DNA of 64,000 bases, taken from contig CBDDCK010000005.1 of the NCBI GenBank assembly GCA_965225855.1, positions 1,472,001 to 1,536,000 on the forward strand, read 5' to 3'. Of the stretch, positions 1,598 to 39,085 are shown one piece after another. A program made the position numbers and the translations under genes. Each line of letters starts with the position of its first letter. Position 1 is the stretch's first letter. The notes under the pieces are model-generated. The model did not search any database. It had not been told where the DNA came from and saw nothing but the letters and a program-made list of their open reading frames with translations. Source of the stretch: Spirochaetia bacterium (lineage in GTDB: Bacteria; Spirochaetota; Spirochaetia; SP-2023).

Positions 1598-1982
1598 TTA
1601 TCTTTTATTTTCTCTCTCACTAATTTTGTTCATCATAGCAATAAACCAACGACTACGACTAACAAGAGCAAACAAAATTAAGAGAATTAGAACAATACAG
1701 ATAGGCCTAGAAATAAAAGGTAGTATAGCCCCATCGGAAATAACTAAGGCTCTCCTGAGATTTTTATCCAGTATACTGCCTAAAATAATACCAAGAATCA
1801 TGGGGCTAAAGGATATTCTAATTCACGCATGATATATCCCAAAATCCCCAAAAAAATCATAATTTTTATATCAAAATCCCGGCTTGCCAGAGCATAAGAA
1901 CCAATGACGCAAAGCGTGAAAATGATAGGTACTAATTTTGTTCTCGATATTTGCAAAATTTTCACTAAAGATTTCACCATAG
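1598..1982 (-). pseudogene. tctA: 3' remnant of tripartite tricarboxylate transporter TctA, frameshifted and 5'-truncated by the element at 1983
   Basis: ORFs 1798-1980 and 1598-1801 join into the TctA C-terminus (IIFTLCVIGSYA...GILGYIM..LEYPLAP/MILGIILGSILDKNLRRALVISDG...FISRPI). Frameshift near 1800. The 5' part is absent. Confidence 0.85.
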
Positions 1983-2028
1983 TGATGCAGGACGTGATAA
2001 CTTTGTGCCATCGGACGTGATAACTCGA
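1983..2028. repeat. Right (gene-downstream) terminal sequence of the element, with two GGACGTGATAACT sites (1990, 2013)
   Basis: 46 bp identical to the reverse complement of 25775-25820. Confidence 0.9.
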
Positions 2029-2252
2029 CTCTTCTACTTTCCAGAATGGCTATAATTGATAAAAGCAGCCTTGATAAAAAAACTTACCAAGGCTATAATT
2101 GGCCAATGCAAGCGTTGCAACAACAAGATACAGCCTAATAGCCCAACAAAAAAGCCAACCAAGCATTGCTTACCGCATTTACTTGGTTGGCCTGCCAGCC
2201 AGCTTTCATTTAGCTGCTCTAAGAGCTATTGGGCAAGCGCAGTCAAACTAAA

Positions 2253-4637
2253 TTAATTACCAACCAAAATATTAGTTCTTCGGTCTGCTGGACTACCCAT
2301 TACAAATCCTGCTGCTGCTTCCAGGTTGTATTCACCAGTATCATCACTAATACCATTCTTAACCAGTATCTTCTCGGCTTCCGCTTTTACACTACCGCTT
2401 AAAGTAATATATAAGTTTGTTGCACTTGCACGAGAACCTGTGGCTGTGTTTTCACCTGCGGTTGCGTGCTTAGGTAATGTGTATCTCTTACTACTATCAC
2501 CGGATACAAGCGTCAATTTGCTAAAGTCCCACTCTGCAACTGTTGTCGGTAAATTAGTACCCTGAATCACTAACTCGCCTCTATTAGCATAGTAGATTGA
2601 GGCGATGATGCTGGCTACATACCCACTAACGGTAATAGGGTTACTTGTGTCTTCAGCGCTACCACCTGCAAATCCTGCTGCTGCTTCCAGGTTGTATGCA
2701 CCATTATCATCACTATCACCATTCTTAACCAGTATACTATTGGCTTTATCGTATTCAGTACCCTTTAAAGTAATCGTTAAGCTTGTTGCACTGGCTGCAG
2801 AACCTGTGGCTCTGTTTATACCGGTTGGTCTGTGCCATAATAATGGTTGACTCTTACGACCATTACCTGCGACAAGCCTCAATTTGGTGAAGTCCCAGCC
2901 TGTAACTGCTTTTGGTAAATTAGTGCCTGTAATCACTAACATGCCTGTAACAATATTGTAGGTTGCACTGGTAATTGCGGGTGCGGGGTTTCCACTAACG
3001 GTTAAGTCTTTGGCTGTATTTAAACCCGCCCAAGCACCAGTGCCAACGCTAAGTAACCCATCTTTTAGACCATTGCTATCCATACCTGTTTTGCCATTCA
3101 GAGTAGCTTTATGTTGATCGGTAAGTTTCAGCCAAAGCGCTGTACCATCGTTTTTCATGCGGTACTTACCTTTTGCAAGACCGCGACTATCTGGCCCAGT
3201 GGCATCGTCATCTGCAGTATAGGAACTTAAGGCTAGGCCATCTACCACGATGGTTTGGATTTGGGCTTGGGTCGCACTAGCTAAGTCAGTACCTTGTACA
3301 GTTAACAGCGCCGTGCCAACATTGTAGCTTGCACGGGTAATTGCGGGGTTACCACTAACGGCCAAGGCTTTGGCTGTATTTAAACCCGCCCAAGCACCAG
3401 TGCCAACGCTAAGCAACCCATCTTTTAGACCATTGCTATCCATACCTGTCTTGCCATTCAGAGTAGTTTTATGTCGATCGGTAAGTTTCAGCCAAAGCGC
3501 TGTGCCAGCGCTATGCAGGCGGTACTTACCTTTTGCAAGACTGCGACTATCTGGCCCAGTGGCTGTGCCATCTGCAGTATAGGAACTTAAGGCTAAGCCA
3601 TCTACCGTGATGGTTTGGATTTGGGCTTGGGTCGCACTACCTAAGTGAGTACCTTGCAAGGTTAACAGCGCCGTGCCAACATGGTAGCTTGCACCGGTAA
3701 TTGCGGGGTTTCCACTAACGGTTAAGGCTTTGGCTGTATCTAAACCCGCCCAACTACCAGTGCTAGTAAGCAACCCATCTTTTAGACCATTGCTATCCAT
3801 ACCGTCCTTGCCATTCAGAGTAGTTTTATGTTGATCGGTAAGGTAAAGCCAAAGCGCTGTGCCATCGCTTTTAATACGGTACTTACCTTTTGCAAGACTG
3901 CTACTATCTGCCCCAGTGGCTGTGCCATCTGCAGTATAAGAATTTAAGACTAGGTCATATACTTTGATGGTTTGGATTTGGGCTTGGGTCGCAGTTGTAG
4001 GACTTAAGTTAGAACCTTGTACAGTTAGCAGCGCCGTGCCAACATGGTAGCTTGCACGGGTAATTGCAGCTTCAGGCGACTGCTCTTCAGCTTGTTCGAC
4101 TTGTTCAGCTTGTTCGTCTTCAGTTTGCTTAGATGGCTGATTGTCATCGGATACTTTAGACTGCTTATCGGGTACATTCCTAACGGTTAAGTCTTTGGCT
4201 GTATTTAAACCCGCCCAAGCACCAGAGCTAGTAAGCAACCCTTTTTTTAGACCATTGGTATTCATACCCACCTTGGTCTGAAGAGCAGCTTTATGTGGAT
4301 CGGTAAGTCTAAGCCAAAGCTCTGTGCCATCGTTTGCAATACGGTACTTACCTTTTGCAAGACCGTTACTATCTGGCCCAGTGGCTGGGTCATCTGCAGT
4401 ATAGGAATCTAAAGCTATGCCATCTACTACGATGGTTTGGATTTGGGCTTCTGTAGGACTTAAGTCAGTACCTTGTACGGTTAACAGAGCCGTAGCAAAG
4501 TCGTAGATGGCATTATTGATAGACGGCCCAGAAGATGGCCCAGAAGATCGATCATCGTCATCGGGTGGGGCGCAGGCCAAGGCCATAAAGGCCAGTAGCA
4601 ATGCTACAGGCAATAAAAGTAGTTTGAGCTTATACAT
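2253..4637 (-). CDS. Surface lipoprotein with tandem beta-rich (Ig/IPT-like) repeats, allele 1 (4 type-A + 2 type-B repeats)
   Basis: GGAGG RBS before ATG 4637. Signal peptide MYKLKLLLLPVALLLAFMALA-C. About 120-aa repeats AITxAxYxVGTALLTxQGTxL and AITSATYNxxTGxLVITGTNLP. E/Q-rich linker. Confidence 0.85.
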   Translation of the reverse strand: MYKLKLLLLPVALLLAFMALACAPPDDDDRSSGPSSGPSINNAIYDFATALLTVQGTDLSPTEAQIQTIVVDGIALDSYTADDPATGPDSNGLAKGKYRIANDGTELWLRLTDPHKAALQTKVGMNTNGLKKGLLTSSGAWAGLNTAKDLTVRNVPDKQSKVSDDNQPSKQTEDEQAEQVEQAEEQSPEAAITRASYHVGTALLTVQGSNLSPTTATQAQIQTIKVYDLVLNSYTADGTATGADSSSLAKGKYRIKSDGTALWLYLTDQHKTTLNGKDGMDSNGLKDGLLTSTGSWAGLDTAKALTVSGNPAITGASYHVGTALLTLQGTHLGSATQAQIQTITVDGLALSSYTADGTATGPDSRSLAKGKYRLHSAGTALWLKLTDRHKTTLNGKTGMDSNGLKDGLLSVGTGAWAGLNTAKALAVSGNPAITRASYNVGTALLTVQGTDLASATQAQIQTIVVDGLALSSYTADDDATGPDSRGLAKGKYRMKNDGTALWLKLTDQHKATLNGKTGMDSNGLKDGLLSVGTGAWAGLNTAKDLTVSGNPAPAITSATYNIVTGMLVITGTNLPKAVTGWDFTKLRLVAGNGRKSQPLLWHRPTGINRATGSAASATSLTITLKGTEYDKANSILVKNGDSDDNGAYNLEAAAGFAGGSAEDTSNPITVSGYVASIIASIYYANRGELVIQGTNLPTTVAEWDFSKLTLVSGDSSKRYTLPKHATAGENTATGSRASATNLYITLSGSVKAEAEKILVKNGISDDTGEYNLEAAAGFVMGSPADRRTNILVGN

Positions 4638-4700
4638 AAGCAATACCTCCAACAATGGATAAAGATTGGCCAACCCATACGGGCTAGTCTGTAAATCCCC

Positions 4701-4726
4701 ATTTTGCTAGGGGGGTGTTGCGTCAA
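4701..4726 (-). promoter_or_regulatory. Putative sigma70 promoter of allele 1, poly-C6 in spacer
   Basis: TTGACG-CAACA-C6-TAG-CAAAAT, 14-nt spacer. Confidence 0.55.
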
Positions 4727-4883
4727 GGCCTTTATAAGGCTTTTTGTAAGTTTTTTTGTGTTAGGGCACTTTTTTTGTGTCTTAGTGTTGTAAGGTGGTT
4801 CAAAATCCATGCCAATCAAAAGGCTTGAGATTATTTGAGATACCTTGGGTAAAAATTTGTAATACGCTAGACGCAGTCCGGGC

Positions 4884-5305
4884 GTTGCGTTGCGTATGAT
4901 CGTACGAAACATCATGGCACAAAGTATAAGAATAAGAATTTGAGTTTTTTGTATCGCAGTACAGCCCAGTTTTTAGCAAAATAATACAATACAATTTTTT
5001 GCGATTTTTTTAGAGACTGCCACAGCCTCGTTGGAAAATCCCCAGGTTGCCAATCAAGAAAGCTAGTAAGGTTTTCAGTCAAAACCTTACTAGCTTTCTT
5101 CAGAAACCTTACTAGCTTTTTGAGACCGTGGCCCGTTACCATGATATTTTAAAAGCATATTGTTGCCGACAACCCATATGCCGAAAAACAAAAATTTTTT
5201 TACCTTTTTATTTTGGAAAGTAAGCCAATTTTTACCTTCCATTTGTCCCCAAAAAAATCCCGAGTTATCGCGTCTTATCCCGTTCAGTTATCATGTTCCG
5301 GATCA
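4884..5305. repeat. Conserved left arm of the element (about 420 bp), including the left terminal sequence
   Basis: Near-identical to the reverse complement of 36059-36492. Confidence 0.9.
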
Positions 5306-5886
5306 ACTATTTAGTCGGGGCTCTTCACGCAAACAATTTTGGCAATACAATGTTGATCGGGTTTGTTGCCTTGGGGTGTTGGTTGGGGGTGGGGCAGCTA
5401 TTGGTTTGGTGTTGGGGTGGGGCTATTGTGGCTTTTCATTATTGATCTGCTGTGGAGACCATATAAAAAGGTGTTGGGCAAGACTCAATAATTCTAATTT
5501 CTATAGAAATTAGATAAAACCAAAAAAGACGCAACAATTTATATCCCATATTGTTAAAAAATTCTGCGTCAAAATCCTTTTTGGTTGGCCTTCCCTTTTT
5601 AAAATAGTGTTAAATAACTTTTTCAACCAAACCAGCTTTTAAACAACGGGTGCAAATCTTCATACGCTAATCTTTGCTTTATATATGCCTTTAATGTTTA
5701 ACAAATTGGGCTTAAAATTCCGAGGAACACGCTTGACAACATGCTGACCTGCCCTTCTCTATTAGGGCTATTAGAATTCAAAAATTTGTAATACACTTGT
5801 AATACACAATAAATAATAAATTTTTGAAAATATCATATTATCTGGGAAATGAAAAATAAATTATGTAAACATTGAAGTTACAAAAC

Positions 5887-11457: not shown

Positions 11458-11933
11458 TCGTCTATAATTCGGCTAGACTAGATCATCTAAATATATTATT
11501 TGGTAATGAAAGGTCTCATCTCTTGAAGGATTGTAAGGGGGCATGAAGAATTAAATGTGGGGTATTTGAGGAAATTGTTGAGTTATAGCCTGTTTATGTG
11601 GCTCTCAGAGGGTGCTTGACGGGGTTTTGAATTTGAAATTAATGGCAACTTTTTGCTATTTTCTAGTATAATTTACAATAAAAGTTGCAGGTTTTCAAAG
11701 TGATTTTTTGTTGTTTTTTGAAGGTGCGCCGGTTTTTACCTGCGTTTTTTTGTGTCTTTTTGGGTTGGTTATTTATTGGTGATGATAAAATGTTCTAGTG
11801 ATGCTAGTTAGTATGGCTTGGCCTTGGTGGCGTTCGTGGACGGTTCAAATTTTTTGTTGTGAGCCAAGCACTTGCCTTTATTTTTAATTACCATTATATT
11901 GACCCAATACAAATCAACTAAGGAGATAATCCA

Positions 11934-22248: not shown

Positions 22249-22381
22249 AGTATTCTATCTCCTATTTAAACCAATGGCCATAATAATAGCAATATTGTTT
22301 GCACAATTCAATAGCCATACCCTTTACCCCATAAATAACCATGATAGTTGCTAAAATCAACAAAGCAATCTTTCGATAGCA

Positions 22382-22529
22382 CTTGTTGCAACCGATAACA
22401 AATGCTTGTTCCAACCGATAACAAGAACTTGTTCCAACCGATAACAAGAACTTGTTCCAACCGATAACAAGAACTTGTTCCAACCGATAACAAGAACTTG
22501 TTCCAACCGATAACAAGAACTTGTTCCAA
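22382..22529. repeat. Tandem repeat of the 23-bp unit CTTGTTCCAACCGATAACAAGAA, about 6.4 copies, no spacers
   Basis: Units start at 22382 (degenerate), 22405, 22428, 22451, 22474, 22497, and a partial at 22520. Each has an internal inverted repeat CTTGTT/AACAAG. Confidence 0.95.
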
Positions 22530-22705
22530 TAAATTTTTATAGAGAAACAATATATATATTTTATTATCCATAAAATTATAAAATATAATCTATCCCATTT
22601 TCTATCTATGCTCTTTTTAGTTACAATGCGCACAATATAGCTTAGCCATTGCCTAGCTATGGCCTTAGCTATGGCTAAGCTATACCCAATAAATGTGAGT
22701 GCACT

Positions 22706-23346: not shown

Positions 23347-23373
23347 TTGACGCAACACCCCCCCTAGCAAAAT
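23347..23373 (+). promoter_or_regulatory. Putative sigma70 promoter of allele 2, poly-C7 in spacer
   Basis: TTGACG-CAACA-C7-TAG-CAAAAT, 15-nt spacer. Confidence 0.55.
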
Positions 23374-23436: not shown

Positions 23437-25509
23437 ATGTATAAGCTCAAACTATTTTTATTGCCTGTAGCCTGGCTACTGGCCTTTATGGCCTTGGCCT
23501 GCGCCCCACCCGATGACGATGATGCATCTTCTGGGCCGACTTCTGGGCCTGCAATCACCAGTGCAAGCTACGATGTTGACACGGCTCTGCTAACTGTACA
23601 AGGTACTGACTTAGGTAGTGCGCAACAAGCGCAAATCCAAACTATCAGGGTAGCTGGCCTAGCCTTAAATTCTTATACTGCCACAGCCACTGGGGTAAAT
23701 AGTAACGGTCTTAAACAAGGTCAGTACCGTATTGCAAACGATGGCACTGCGATTTGGCTTAGACTTAAAGATGAACATAAAGATACTCTTAAAGCTACTC
23801 TGAATGGCAAACCCGATATGGCTAACGATGGTCTAAAAAAAGGCTTGCTTAGCGTTAGCTCTGGTAGTTGGGCGGGTTTAGATACAGCCAAAGACTTAAC
23901 CGTTAGGAATATACCCGGTAAGCAGTCTAAGACCGAAACTGAAGATAAGCAGTCTAAGACCGAAGTCGAAGAAGCTGAACAAGTCAAAGAAACTGAAGAA
24001 GCCGAACAAACCGAACAAGACCAACAAGCTGAAGAGGAGTCGCCTAAAGCTGCAATTACCCGTGCCATCTACGATGTTGGCACGGCTATCTTAACTGTAC
24101 AAGGTACTCACTTAAGTAGTGCGACCCAAGCGCAAATCCAAACCATCAAAGTATATGACCTAGTCTTAAGTTCCTATATTGCAGATGGCACAGCCACTGG
24201 GCCAGATAGTCGCAGTCTTACAAAAGGTAAGTACCGTATGAAAAGCGATGGCACAGCGCTTTGGCTGAAACTTACCGATCGACATAAAGCTGCTCTTGAG
24301 GCCAAGACAGGTATGAATAAGGATGGTCTAAAAAAAGGGTTGCTTAGCGTTAGCTCTGGTGCTTGGGCGGGTTTAAATACAGCCAAAGACTTGGAAGTTA
24401 GTGGAAACCCCGAAGCTGCAATTACCAGTGCAACCTACCATGTTGGCACGGCTCTGCTAACTTTACAAGGTTCTAACTTAAGTCCTACAACTGCGACCCA
24501 AGCGCAAATCCAAACTATCACGGTAGATGGCTTAGCCTTAAGTTCCTATATTGCAGATGACACAGCCACTGGGTCAGATAGTCGTGGTCTTGCAAAAGGT
24601 AAGTACCGTATTAAAAGAGATGGCACAGCGCTTTGGCTTTACCTTACCGATCAACATAAAACTACTCTTCAGGGCAAGCCCGGTATGAATAAGGATGGTA
24701 GAAAAGTCGGGTTGCTTAGCGTTGGCACTGGTATTTGGGCGGGTTTAAATACAGCCAAAGCCTTGGCTGTTAGTGGAAACCCTGCAATTACCAGTGCAAC
24801 CTACCATGTTGTTACAGACTTGTTAGTGATTACAGGTACTAATTTACCGTCAACAGTGGATGGCTGGGACTTTAGCAAATTGAGGTTTGTATCCGGTGGT
24901 GGTCTTGAGAGTCAACCATTAAAAAAGCACTCAACTACAGGTGCACACAGAGCCACAGGTTCTGCAGCAAGTGGCACATTCTTAGCGATTATTTTAAAGG
25001 GTTATGAAATACTGAAAGTCCGTAATACATTGCTTCTGAATGGTCTTGGTGATGATGATGGTGCATACAATCTGGAAGCAGCAGCAGGATTTGTAATTGG
25101 TAGTAGCGCAGCAGACACAAGTAACCCTATTACCGTTAGTGGCTACATAAGCTCTATCAGCTCCGTACGCTACTATCCTAATAAAAGCGAGCTAAGGATT
25201 TACGGTAGCAAGTTACCGAAAACAGTTGCAGACTGGGACTTTAGCAAATTGACGCTTGTATCCGGTGATGGTAATAAGAGATACTCATTACCTAAGCACG
25301 CAACAGGTGCTGCAAACACAGCCACAGGTTCTAAGGCAAGTAGAAGCGGCTTAAAGATTACTTTAAGCGGTAGTGTAAAAGCGGAAGTCGAGAAGATACT
25401 GGTTAAGGTTGGTCTTCGTGATAATAATGGTGAATACAACCTGGAAGCAGCAGCAGGATTTGTAACGGATAATCCAGAAGACCCAATCACTAGTGTATTC
25501 AAGCACTAG
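23437..25509 (+). CDS. Repeat surface lipoprotein, allele 2 (3 type-A + 2 type-B repeats)
   Basis: GGAGG RBS, lipobox ALA-C, paralogous to 2253-4637. Confidence 0.85.
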   Translation: MYKLKLFLLPVAWLLAFMALACAPPDDDDASSGPTSGPAITSASYDVDTALLTVQGTDLGSAQQAQIQTIRVAGLALNSYTATATGVNSNGLKQGQYRIANDGTAIWLRLKDEHKDTLKATLNGKPDMANDGLKKGLLSVSSGSWAGLDTAKDLTVRNIPGKQSKTETEDKQSKTEVEEAEQVKETEEAEQTEQDQQAEEESPKAAITRAIYDVGTAILTVQGTHLSSATQAQIQTIKVYDLVLSSYIADGTATGPDSRSLTKGKYRMKSDGTALWLKLTDRHKAALEAKTGMNKDGLKKGLLSVSSGAWAGLNTAKDLEVSGNPEAAITSATYHVGTALLTLQGSNLSPTTATQAQIQTITVDGLALSSYIADDTATGSDSRGLAKGKYRIKRDGTALWLYLTDQHKTTLQGKPGMNKDGRKVGLLSVGTGIWAGLNTAKALAVSGNPAITSATYHVVTDLLVITGTNLPSTVDGWDFSKLRFVSGGGLESQPLKKHSTTGAHRATGSAASGTFLAIILKGYEILKVRNTLLLNGLGDDDGAYNLEAAAGFVIGSSAADTSNPITVSGYISSISSVRYYPNKSELRIYGSKLPKTVADWDFSKLTLVSGDGNKRYSLPKHATGAANTATGSKASRSGLKITLSGSVKAEVEKILVKVGLRDNNGEYNLEAAAGFVTDNPEDPITSVFKH

Positions 25510-25700: not shown

Positions 25701-25820
25701 CTATATCATAGCAAGGCTAGAAAAATTTATTAAGGCTGCTTTTGCCAATTATAGCCTTGGTAAGTAGAAAAAAATCGAGTTATCACGTCCGATGGCACAA
25801 AGTTATCACGTCCTGCATCA

Positions 25821-35637: not shown

Positions 35638-36621
35638 AAAATAAAACAAATTTCTTTTGTGCATTGCCAAAGGGCCTGGGCAAGATTAGATAGGATTTTG
35701 ACGCAAAATTGAAGCAGGACGCGGCATAAATTTGTATCTTTGAAACAATCACTTATGGAAATTTGTCCTTTGGTGCCCGAATTGGCTCAAGTTGTGGTAC
35801 AGTTTTCGTAACGAAGGTAGAGATTTGACTCAATGAGTCGCCCAATGAGCTATGCCATCATTTTTTACTGCTACTGTAGTTTGGGCTATTTATGAACGAA
35901 ACTCGGGGCACGGAATATTGAATCAAGTGATATTGGCTAGCATTGTTTTAATCCATTATCTAAGAAATCATTGAACAAAAAAGCAAATTCCAAGTGGATT
36001 CACCTGAAAAATTTACTTGGTAAAACCTGCAAGTAATTTCAAATGGAACTCCGCTTTATGATACGGAACATGATAACTGAACGGGATAAGACGCGATAAC
36101 TCGGGATTTTTTTGGGCACAAATGGAAGGTAAAAATTGGCTTACTTTCCAAAATAAAAAGGTAAAAAATTTTTGTTTTTCGGCATATGGGCCATTGTCGG
36201 CAGTAATTGGGCAACAATATGCTTTCAAAATATCATGGTAACGGGCCGTAGTCTCAAAAAGCTAGTAAGGTTTTCAAAAAAGCTAGTAAGGTTTTGACTG
36301 AAAACCTTACTAGCTTTTTTGATTGGCAACCTAGGGATTTTCCAACGAGACTGTGGCAGTCTCTAAAAAAATCGCAAAAAATTGTATTGTATTATTTTGC
36401 TAAAAACTGGGCTGTACTGCGATACAAAAAACTCAAATTCTTATTCTTATACTTTGTGCCATGATGTTTCGTACGATCATACGAAACGCAACAGCTCTTC
36501 TATACTTTAAACCATCACTATTAAGCAAACAGCCACAGGGAATTATTCCCGTGGCTGTTTTGCCTACAACACTAAAACATAAAAAAAGCACAAAAAAACT
36601 TACAAAAAGCTTGTATGGGCC

Positions 36622-36649
36622 TTGACGCAACACCCCCCCCTCACAAAAT
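36622..36649 (+). promoter_or_regulatory. Putative sigma70 promoter of allele 3, poly-C8 in spacer
   Basis: TTGACG-CAACA-C8-TCA-CAAAAT, 16-nt spacer. Confidence 0.55.
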
Positions 36650-36713: not shown

Positions 36714-38501
36714 ATGTATAAGCTCAAACTATTTTTATTGCCTGTAGCATTGCTACTGGCCTTTATGGCCTTTGCCTGCGCCCCACCCGATGACGATGAT
36801 CGATCTTCTGGGCCGACTATCAATAACGCCATCTACGATGTTGGCACGGCTATCTTAACCGTACAAGGTACTGACTTAAGTCCTACAACTGCGACCCAAG
36901 CGCAAATCCAAACTATCAGGGTAGGAAGCCGAACAAATGGTGTAGCTTTCAGTTCCTATACTGCAGATGACGATGCCACTGGGGTAAATAGTAACGGTCT
37001 TGAAAAAGGTAAGTACCGTATTAAAAGCGATGGCACAGCGCTTTGGCTTAGACTTACCAATCAACATAAAGCTGTTCTTGAGGCCAAGACAGGTATGGAT
37101 AGCGATAGTCTAAAAAAAGGGTTGCTTAGCGTTAGCTCGGGTGCTTGGGCGGGTTTAGATACAGCCAAAGACTTAACCGTTAATATACTCGGTAAGCCAT
37201 CTAAGCAAACCGAAGCCGAACAAGACGAACAAGCCGAAGAAGAGTCGCGTAAGCAAACTGAAGACGAACAAGCTGAACAAGTCGAACAAGCTGAACAAGT
37301 CGAAGAGCAGTCGCGTAAGCAAACTGAAGACGAACAAGCTGAACAAGTCGAACAAGTCGAAGAAGAGTCGCCTAAGCAACCTAAAGCCGAAGAGCAGTCG
37401 CCTAAAGCCGCAATTACCCGTGCAAGCTACCATGTTGGCACGGCGCTGCTAACTTTACAAGGTACTCACTTAGGTAGTGCGACCCAAGCCCAAATCCAAA
37501 CCATCAAAGTATATGGCGTAGTCTTAAGTTCCTATACTGCAGATGACCCAGCCACTGGGCCAGATAGTCGCAGTCTTGCAAAAGGTAAGTACCGTATGAA
37601 AAGCGATGGCACAGCGCTTTGGCTTAGACTTACCGATGCCGATAAAGCTACTCTGAATGACAAGAAAGGTATGGATACCAATGGTCTAAAAGATGGGTTG
37701 CTTAGCGTTGGCTCTGGTGCTTGGGCGGGTTTAAATACAGCCAAACCCTTAACCGTTAGTGGACACCCTGCAATTACCAGTGCAACGTTTAATGCTGTTA
37801 CAGGCTGGTTAGTGATTACAGGTACTAATTTACCGTCAACAGTGGATGGCTGGGACTTTAGCAAATTGAGGTTTGTCTCAGGTATTGGTATTGAGAGTCA
37901 ACCATTAAAAAAGCACTCAACTACAGGTGCAGACAGAGCCACAGGTTCTGCAGCAAGTGGCACATTCTTAGTGATTATTTTAGAGGGTGAAGCAAGAATA
38001 AAAGCCTCTAATGCATTGACGCAGAATGGTCTTGGTGATGATCATGGTGCATACAACCTGAAAGCAGCAGCAGGATTTGCAGGTGGTAGCGCAGCAGACA
38101 CAAGCAATAACCCGATTACCGTTAGTGGCTACAAAAGCTCTATCAGCACCGTATACTACTATCGTAATAAAGGCAGGTTATTGATTTACGGTAACAAGTT
38201 ACCGAAAACATTTACAGAGTGGGACTTTAGCAAATTGACGCTTGTATCCGGTGATGGTAGTAAGAGATACCCATTACCCCAGCACGCAATAGGTGAAAAC
38301 ACAGCCACAGGTTCTGCAGCAAGTACAACAAGAGTAACTATTACTTTAAGCGGTAGTGTAAAAGCGGAAGCCGAGAAGATACTGGTTAACGATGGTAAAA
38401 GTGATAATAATGGTGCATACAACCTGGAAGCAGCAGCAGGATTTGTAACGGGTAATCCAGAAGACTTAACAAATCAGATTGTGGTTAGTGCTAGTAAGTA
38501 G
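36714..38501 (+). CDS. Repeat surface lipoprotein, allele 3 (2 type-A + 2 type-B repeats, expanded E/Q linker)
   Basis: GGAGG RBS, lipobox AFA-C, paralogous to the other two alleles. Confidence 0.85.
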   Translation: MYKLKLFLLPVALLLAFMAFACAPPDDDDRSSGPTINNAIYDVGTAILTVQGTDLSPTTATQAQIQTIRVGSRTNGVAFSSYTADDDATGVNSNGLEKGKYRIKSDGTALWLRLTNQHKAVLEAKTGMDSDSLKKGLLSVSSGAWAGLDTAKDLTVNILGKPSKQTEAEQDEQAEEESRKQTEDEQAEQVEQAEQVEEQSRKQTEDEQAEQVEQVEEESPKQPKAEEQSPKAAITRASYHVGTALLTLQGTHLGSATQAQIQTIKVYGVVLSSYTADDPATGPDSRSLAKGKYRMKSDGTALWLRLTDADKATLNDKKGMDTNGLKDGLLSVGSGAWAGLNTAKPLTVSGHPAITSATFNAVTGWLVITGTNLPSTVDGWDFSKLRFVSGIGIESQPLKKHSTTGADRATGSAASGTFLVIILEGEARIKASNALTQNGLGDDHGAYNLKAAAGFAGGSAADTSNNPITVSGYKSSISTVYYYRNKGRLLIYGNKLPKTFTEWDFSKLTLVSGDGSKRYPLPQHAIGENTATGSAASTTRVTITLSGSVKAEAEKILVNDGKSDNNGAYNLEAAAGFVTGNPEDLTNQIVVSASK

Positions 38502-38660: not shown

Positions 38661-39085
38661 CTATATCATAGCAAGGCACTAAAAAATTTATTAAGTCTAC
38701 AAACTTTTTTAGTAATAGCTTTGAACAAACCCCTTACAATAATTATTACCAGAACGTTGCCATAACAATTAAGAGAGTCTCTTAATGCCTAACAAGAGAA
38801 TTTCTTAATAACTAACAAGAATTTTTTGTAACAAGATAAACTTTGGCCAAGCCTTGCTTGCCTTTTGGGTGGGCTATTAGACTGTGTTTGGTTGTTGCAA
38901 GGCTTGCATTGTCCAATTACAGCCTTGGAAAGTAGAAGAGTCGAGTTATCACGCCTAAGCTGCAGTTTGGGTATGTAGAGGGAAGGAAGCTGGGGTTTAA
39001 TCATTTCAATTAAGATTTCAATAAAATGTGATTTTCGGTATAATAGGCAAAAAGCTCTCTTTGTAATTTTGTAATAAGGATTCAA

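Follow-up and report, generated by a model that had tools for sequence, protein, structure and literature searches.

The 64,000-nucleotide window examined here (C5:1472001-1536000, the whole stretch of DNA analysed) belongs to the genome of a Spirochaetia bacterium (2.71 Mb in 5 contigs, 94% complete) and contains three copies of a surface lipoprotein gene, the first of which is enclosed between two inverted ends shared with a transposable prophage elsewhere in the genome. Features of the window are numbered by window position (Table 1), coordinates beginning with C1 to C5 refer to the contigs of the genome, and G001, G002, and G003 denote congeners. A previous model-made reading of the same DNA (the sequence-only reading) had described the three copies as a mini-transposon. 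The lipoprotein gene is indeed present in all three, whereas both ends occur within the window on copy 1 only; copy 2 has no left end, and the right terminus of copy 3 is lost. All end coordinates given in that reading hold: the right end at 1983 is identical over 43 nt (0 mismatches) to the reverse complement ending at 25820, left ends lie at 5305 (minus strand) and 36059, and a truncated right remnant ends at 38953. Re-computation also reproduces the match of the left and right ends as an inverted repeat at 16 of 20 positions and the 23-bp distance between the two sites in each end.

The right end of copy 1 cuts off a tctA fragment consisting of the last 60 codons of the domain (stop after 60 residues), and no further close piece of this gene was found elsewhere in the genome. 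The putative promoter of copy 1 was missed by a consensus scan with 16-18-bp spacers.

Table 1. Positions of the three lipoprotein gene copies, their ends, and adjoining features in the window.
Feature	Position	Strand	Remarks
tctA C-terminal fragment, cut at copy 1 right end (target remnant)	1801..1980	-	Pfam TctA positions 362-420 of 423
Right end, copy 1, phage-derived	1983..2053	+	92% identical to last 73 bp of prophage
Putative transposase sites GACGTGATAACT in copy 1 right end	1990-2002 and 2013-2025		predicted
3' arm, copy 1	2054..2252	-	terminator-like hairpin at 2066-2095
Lipoprotein gene, copy 1	2253..4637	-	794 aa; signal peptide with Cys22, ~120-aa A and B repeat domains, acidic linker
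Putative promoter, copy 1	4701..4726	-	TTGACG-CAACA-C6-TAG-CAAAAT, 14-bp spacer; predicted function
5' arm, copy 1	4727..5197	-	non-coding, mosaic
Left end, copy 1, phage-derived	5198..5305	-	prophage positions 9-106 plus terminal TGA, 92% identity
Outer arm common to other copies, beyond left terminus of copy 1	5306..5835	-	homology
Putative promoter, copy 2	23347..23373	+	C7, 15-bp spacer
Lipoprotein gene, copy 2	23437..25509	+	690 aa; without upstream left end
Right end, copy 2	25758..25820	-
Left end, copy 3	36059..36166	+
Putative promoter, copy 3	36622..36649	+	C8, 16-bp spacer; sole C8 among 105
Lipoprotein gene, copy 3	36714..38501	+	595 aa
Truncated right end, copy 3	38898..38953	-	inner site only, terminus lost

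Cassettes bounded by prophage ends

The three window copies are part of a family of 113 loci (tblastn), 98 of which contain open frames of at least 520 aa from an MYKLK start. The loci are dispersed as singletons with a median spacing of 17 kb and together with their shared arms occupy 350 kb, or 12.9% of the genome. Public sequencing runs (four runs from two studies, compared as contigs; X1, X3, and X5 below are such runs) show a contig depth on the genes of tens to more than 100 times that of the flanks, which is not a copy number; as the excess occurs in these runs too, the expansion is not confined to the present assembly.

A genome-wide count of the ends, proposed as a check by the sequence-only reading, gives 31 left and 32 right ends, far above chance. 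They have TG...CA termini with repeated internal sites; one of the 31 left ends starts with TA, and eight right ends contain a single site (two of these eight with a target duplication). The lipoprotein gene is faced by 57 of the 63 ends. Three of the other six are right ends on prophage copies, a fourth stands alone, a fifth is located upstream of a gene, and the last is a left end directed towards a contig end. Both ends are present at 17 of the 113 loci, a left end only at 13, a right end only at 10, and neither at 73; at least one end is thus found at 40 loci, about a third, and the presence of one end is associated with that of the other (odds ratio 9.5, p 4e-6). The 17 paired cassettes are 2.3-3.7 kb long and contain one lipoprotein gene each and no transposase.

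The ends belong to a resident Mu-like prophage of the B3 type (C5:1257678-1293766, 36.1 kb). It encloses the sole match to the rve family in the genome, a protein of 586 aa (C5:1273165-1274925) whose gene is followed by that of an AAA ATPase; the pair matches phrog_310 and phrog_296. Besides MuA and MuB the prophage encodes a repressor, a Mor-like activator, a protease, and terminase, portal, capsid, sheath, tail, and baseplate proteins. The nearest phage relatives of the transposase belong to the B3/BcepMu group, its closest titled record is from Candidatus Haliotispira prima (54% identity), and in an alignment with the B3 enzyme the acidic residues of three DDE-like motifs coincide. We take these three motifs to be the DDE triad of the enzyme. 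The right end of the prophage equals that of the cassettes, and its left end matches them from position 12, the terminal TG being missing. The cassettes retain nested stretches of phage DNA: left arms include about 73, 106, 172, 212, 271, or 690 bp of it, and right arms 52-73 or 350 bp. Two further partial prophage copies are located at the ends of C3 and C4, and arm modules also occur away from lipoprotein genes, in 99 intergenic clusters, some of them inside the prophage.

The sequence-only reading had postulated a non-autonomous unit of the DDE type that carries a lipoprotein gene and depends on a partner at another site, and a prophage with the same ends is such a partner. From the element types that it had listed, the Mu type is supported by this B3/BcepMu prophage, whereas no IstB over the cut-off was found for IS21; the IstA/IstB pair expected within the same ends is absent from the search results, the sole rve match being the phage transposase. 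A Tn7/Tn5053-like mover was also considered and rejected: the duplications are 6 bp long and no local 5-bp match occurs, the TnsA and TniQ families not having been searched. Regarding partners of the IS4/IS5 (insertion sequence) and HUH types, the genome contains no PF01609 or PF01797 match (further insertion sequence families were not searched).

Perfect 6-bp target duplications flank 5 of the 17 paired cassettes, compared to 0 matches in 100,000 flank permutations, and phage B3 is described as making duplications of 6 bp (PMC8705779). A central TA is present in 24 of 58 distinct end flanks against a background of 8%, and this NNTANN bias is restricted to the six bases adjoining the end, with none beyond. 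According to this bias, the unpaired ends are transposition junctions as well. Moreover, a coiled-coil gene that exists in several copies is interrupted by cassette C1:5963-8996, whereas its paralogues are continuous and colinear; the duplication of this cassette is imperfect. Three non-local 6-bp flank matches are close to the null mean of 1.35 and were not counted as evidence.

Larger arrangements of ends were observed in addition. Between a left and a right end at C5:1027022-1041147 lie 14.1 kb of DNA. This segment contains two lipoprotein genes, prophage scraps, a MATE gene, and the operon of an ABC transporter of the peptide/nickel type; the flanks match at 5 of 6 positions, and the region is possibly a composite unit. 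At C5:1590138-1616622 a distance of 26.5 kb separates a right end from a left end; the two share a perfect 6-bp flank match, with four copies and host genes in between, which more likely reflects recombination between copies than one jump. Finally, a lipoprotein gene lies between two right ends at C5:1594979-1598895, with a MuB scrap in its upstream arm.

Origin of the dispersed family

Our preferred explanation, to which we assign a probability of about 0.72, is that at least 40 loci were seeded by a natural mini-Mu, which the B3-type transposase of the resident prophage mobilized, and that recombination then scrambled flanks and domains. Initially, two B3-type prophage ends would have come to flank one member of the surface lipoprotein family, and the phage interior would have been deleted stepwise, leaving left arms of ~73 to 690 bp and right arms of 52 to 350 bp. 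The MuA-like transposase and the MuB-like ATPase could then have copied the 2.3-3.7-kb cassette to many sites, using 6-bp targets with a central TA. Subsequently, recombination and segmental gene conversion among the ~100 copies, presumably the mechanism at work, would have swapped flanks, arms, and domains; owing to such flank swapping most duplications would be lost and the genes mosaic. As a third of the copies adjoin phage ends, the phage enzyme probably helped to scatter a large repertoire of variable surface proteins.

Several observations weigh against this scenario. No target duplication is found at 12 of the 17 paired cassettes, including copy 1 of the window (flanks AATAGT and CTATGG), and 73 of the 113 loci lack any end. 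The sequence-only reading had named homology past the termini as a sign against mobility, and for copy 1 homology to other copies does continue ~530 bp beyond the left TG; the outer flank of this left end is common to four other left ends, and the five together imply that the arm was copied past the terminus. The prophage has lost its left terminus and its portal, tape-measure, and baseplate frames are split, although the A and B frames are open. Near-identical complete two-ended cassettes were not found in the genome, which therefore gives no sign of very recent jumps. An empty site in another strain, expected by the sequence-only reading, was not found among the joints listed for the four runs at C5:38001-57500. 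At the tested duplication locus the left end is entered by X1 and X3 contigs and the right end by an X5 contig, from a strain ~2% different, and consequently this insertion is not recent. Furthermore, 123 matches to a lipoprotein family other than this one were counted in G002, where most are tandemly arranged and each prophage end is present a single time. Since congeners have expanded other lipoprotein families and the prophage ends of G002 are unrepeated, Mu ends are not needed for such expansions. The claim that a cassette, presumably mobilized in trans, spreads the family is partly supported and overstated with regard to the 73 loci without ends: according to the duplications and the target bias on one side and the end-less loci on the other, mini-Mu transposition accounts for only a part of the expansion.

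The lipoprotein family itself was not found among 40 relatives searched, in a profile search of the three congeners, or in metagenome contigs, and in the congeners the genes flanking the cassette are not adjacent. A single Mu-type end was noted at G003:C1:1792526-1792545, in a genome without a transposase match. At L040:3900-7577, beside a cassette, contig depth in X1 and X3 is below that of neighbouring unique DNA and one contig leaves the reference at 3900, which is strain heterogeneity.

The 73 end-less loci would have arisen partly by loss of ends and partly by a second route of a recombination type. Their boundaries are ragged, and no hidden direct or inverted repeats above shuffles were found at the 55 testable loci. 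It is improbable that instead mini-Mu transposition placed every one of the 113 copies and that deletion later removed both ends from 73, although part of the arm evidence agrees with this idea: the upstream arms of the 73 copies are covered to 87% (median) by the inner arms of left-ended copies, inner phage-left pieces are kept at a few end-less loci (17, 73, and 92), and ended and end-less genes are equally similar to each other. However, ends are nearly all-or-none. Gradual erosion alone is insufficient, because cuts within the terminal sites are seen in two cassette remnants only; the downstream arms of end-less copies reach a median coverage of only 58%; and two other types of boundary recur, a TGTAA module in ~17 copies and a neighbouring coiled-coil gene in ~9.

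The TGTAA module is a second end-like sequence that begins at window position 11532 and is found at ~23 sites genome-wide, both at the boundary of lipoprotein loci and alone; no partner or duplication was found for it. It presumably resembles the right end of coliphage Mu, a likeness not confirmed by a phage search, which gave chance matches only. The multi-copy coiled-coil repeat gene follows some of the end-less copies, for example, at C5:54191-54493, and also occurs at C5:1104888-1113673.

Conversely, the family could have spread by recombination only, with the Mu ends being hitchhikers from nearby phage insertions that were distributed by gene conversion. The outer flank common to five left ends, among them that of window copy 1, the mosaic genes, and the expansion in G002 with its unrepeated Mu ends would all be in line with this. 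Nevertheless, we consider it very improbable: the 58 distinct flanks with a target consensus, the five 6-bp duplications, the fixed inward orientation of the ends, and the interrupted gene together require many independent transpositions of the whole unit, and the duplications in particular strongly disfavour a purely recombinational route. That the mover is an unassembled IS21- or Tn7-like element, conceivable in a genome 94% complete in 5 contigs and searched for some transposase families, or that the repeats are an assembly artefact, is highly improbable, as the same ends bound the prophage, no IstB exceeded the cut-off, and the duplications are 6 bp long, while contigs of all four public runs are deeper on the genes and the copies are too different for collapsed duplicates.

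Mosaic cargo and promoter tracts

Nearly all copies of the lipoprotein have Cys22 after MALA or MAFA, and an acidic linker accompanies domains of ~120 aa, of which one to eight are A-type and zero to four B-type (two plus two being commonest, 32 of 98). Matches of the repeats lie in tandem domains of giant proteins, which in addition have DUF4347, cadherin-like, Calx-beta, or RTX domains; the repeats can therefore be called adhesin-like by association. A weak Pfam CrtC match was set aside, no relatives were found among solved structures, and matches in the Atlas carried no name.

The copies are recombinant mosaics. Three different nearest neighbours for the 5', middle, and 3' parts were found for 80 of 103 copies, some 450-nt blocks are exactly identical between copies, and the distances of the first and the last domain correlate at 0.06, compared to 0.67 and 0.45 in odd-even controls. 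Uncorrected pairwise ratios of nonsynonymous to synonymous differences (pN/pS, 96 copies) are 0.80 for the first domain, 1.37 for the first B domain, and 1.74 for the last, values that derive from non-independent pairs and can be inflated by recombination. Columns with more than 2 bits number 23 of 103 in the last domain and 1 of 137 in the first. From its sequence the protein is predicted to form a lipid-anchored stalk of adhesin-like repeats whose outermost domain is hypervariable, and it might serve in host attachment or immune evasion.

Each of the 105 scored copies is preceded by the same arrangement: TTGAC(G/T/C) is followed, after five bases, by a C run and, after three more bases, by a CAAAAT-like hexamer (CATAAT in one variant). 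The -35-like and -10-like hexamers are assigned by consensus only. The run is C7 in 81 copies and C6 in 21, with C5, C8, and C9 in one copy each. C9, the sole C/G run of nine in the genome, belongs to the copy at C5:800637-803084 and results in a spacer of 17 bp. A coding A7 tract used as control is constant in 96 of 99 cases. In X1 and X3 a run one base shorter makes up ~10% of the pooled contig depth, which is not assignable to one locus. Homopolymers in promoter spacers, with an optimum at 17 bp, are described for tp0126 of Treponema pallidum and porA of Neisseria (PMC7864442), and in the vlp family of Mycoplasma hyorhinis each member has one promoter tract (PMC10502178). The likeness to tp0126, porA, and vlp consists in a homopolymer between -35-like and -10-like hexamers; here, in contrast, the tract is short (C7), stands ahead of ~100 dispersed genes, and has a putative effect. 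It is conceivable, at somewhat less than even odds, that the poly-C spacer acts as a slippage switch that is low at C7 and on at C9, and the predominance of C7 suggests that such a switch would be low by default. Congener lipoprotein families (G002:C1:257001-277000; G001) contain tandem repeats of 7 nt just after the start, which put the gene out of frame in 6 of 6 sampled G001 and 12 of 13 sampled G002 genes, the starts being assumed. These heptamer tracts are candidates for frameshift phase variation and would represent a parallel design.

On a wider scale, the prophage might amplify antigenic variation in a host-associated spirochaete through the transposase of a grounded phage, the seeding of ~100 adhesin genes by mini-Mu, conversion of their tips, and a poly-C switch that keeps all but one or a few of them low. 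Conceivably, cassettes with a left end might even be packaged in phage particles and reach other strains. Taken as a whole, we hold this chain of events to be doubtful.

Relation to known systems

Like a mobile insertion cassette, the unit has a passenger between element ends, target duplications, and a cognate transposase with the same ends. The closest analogy is with the mobile insertion cassettes of transcription activator-like effector (TALE) genes in Xanthomonas, which are likewise described as a repeat-rich host-interaction family whose copies have two ends derived from an autonomous element, a single one, or none, with some target duplications and a proposed mobilization in trans (PMC4337579). 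The TALE cassettes, however, have Tn3-family ends and 5-bp duplications according to the same source, whereas the family reported here has ends of a transposable prophage, 6-bp duplications, ~100 genes, and a surface lipoprotein as product.

The features of a mini-Mu are also found: TG...CA ends, repeated sites, and, in a phage of 36.1 kb, neighbouring genes for a B3-type DDE transposase and an AAA ATPase. Engineered mini-Mu(LR) elements share the arrangement of ends around a passenger with MuA/MuB supplied in trans, and with a helper they are described to undergo chromosomal amplification with inversions and deletions (PMC3145075). By comparison, the present element is natural and B3-type, has two sites per end (one in eight right ends), and its cargo is under apparent selection. 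B3-like prophages of Leptospira have sizes of 36-39 kb, TG-CA ends, and 6-bp duplications (PMC8705779), and the helper fits this class; whole prophages are described there, whereas miniature derivatives with host cargo are found here.

The family also resembles other spirochaete surface-protein systems in the segmental exchange among paralogues of a surface protein. In the vls/vmp systems of Borrelia and in tprK of Treponema such exchange involves one expression site and promoterless donors. In contrast, 98 full frames and 105 copies with their own promoter motif set the present family apart from that class.

Mini-Mu elements as laboratory tools and insertion cassettes with insertion sequence or Tn3 ends are known already. 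A literature search that covered few subscription papers did not find a natural mini-Mu with a surface-gene family. If confirmed, a natural mini-Mu that contributed to a surface repertoire of a hundred genes would link phage transposition to the origin of antigenic-variation families, and the singletons here, as opposed to the mostly tandem arrays in G002, offer a testable case of family dispersal. The B3-type transposase with minimal ends of ~52-106 bp is, in addition, a candidate genetic tool for spirochaetes.

Two tyrosine recombinases are encoded in the genome, and an intergenic 23-bp tandem repeat of ~8 units is located at window positions 22355-22538.

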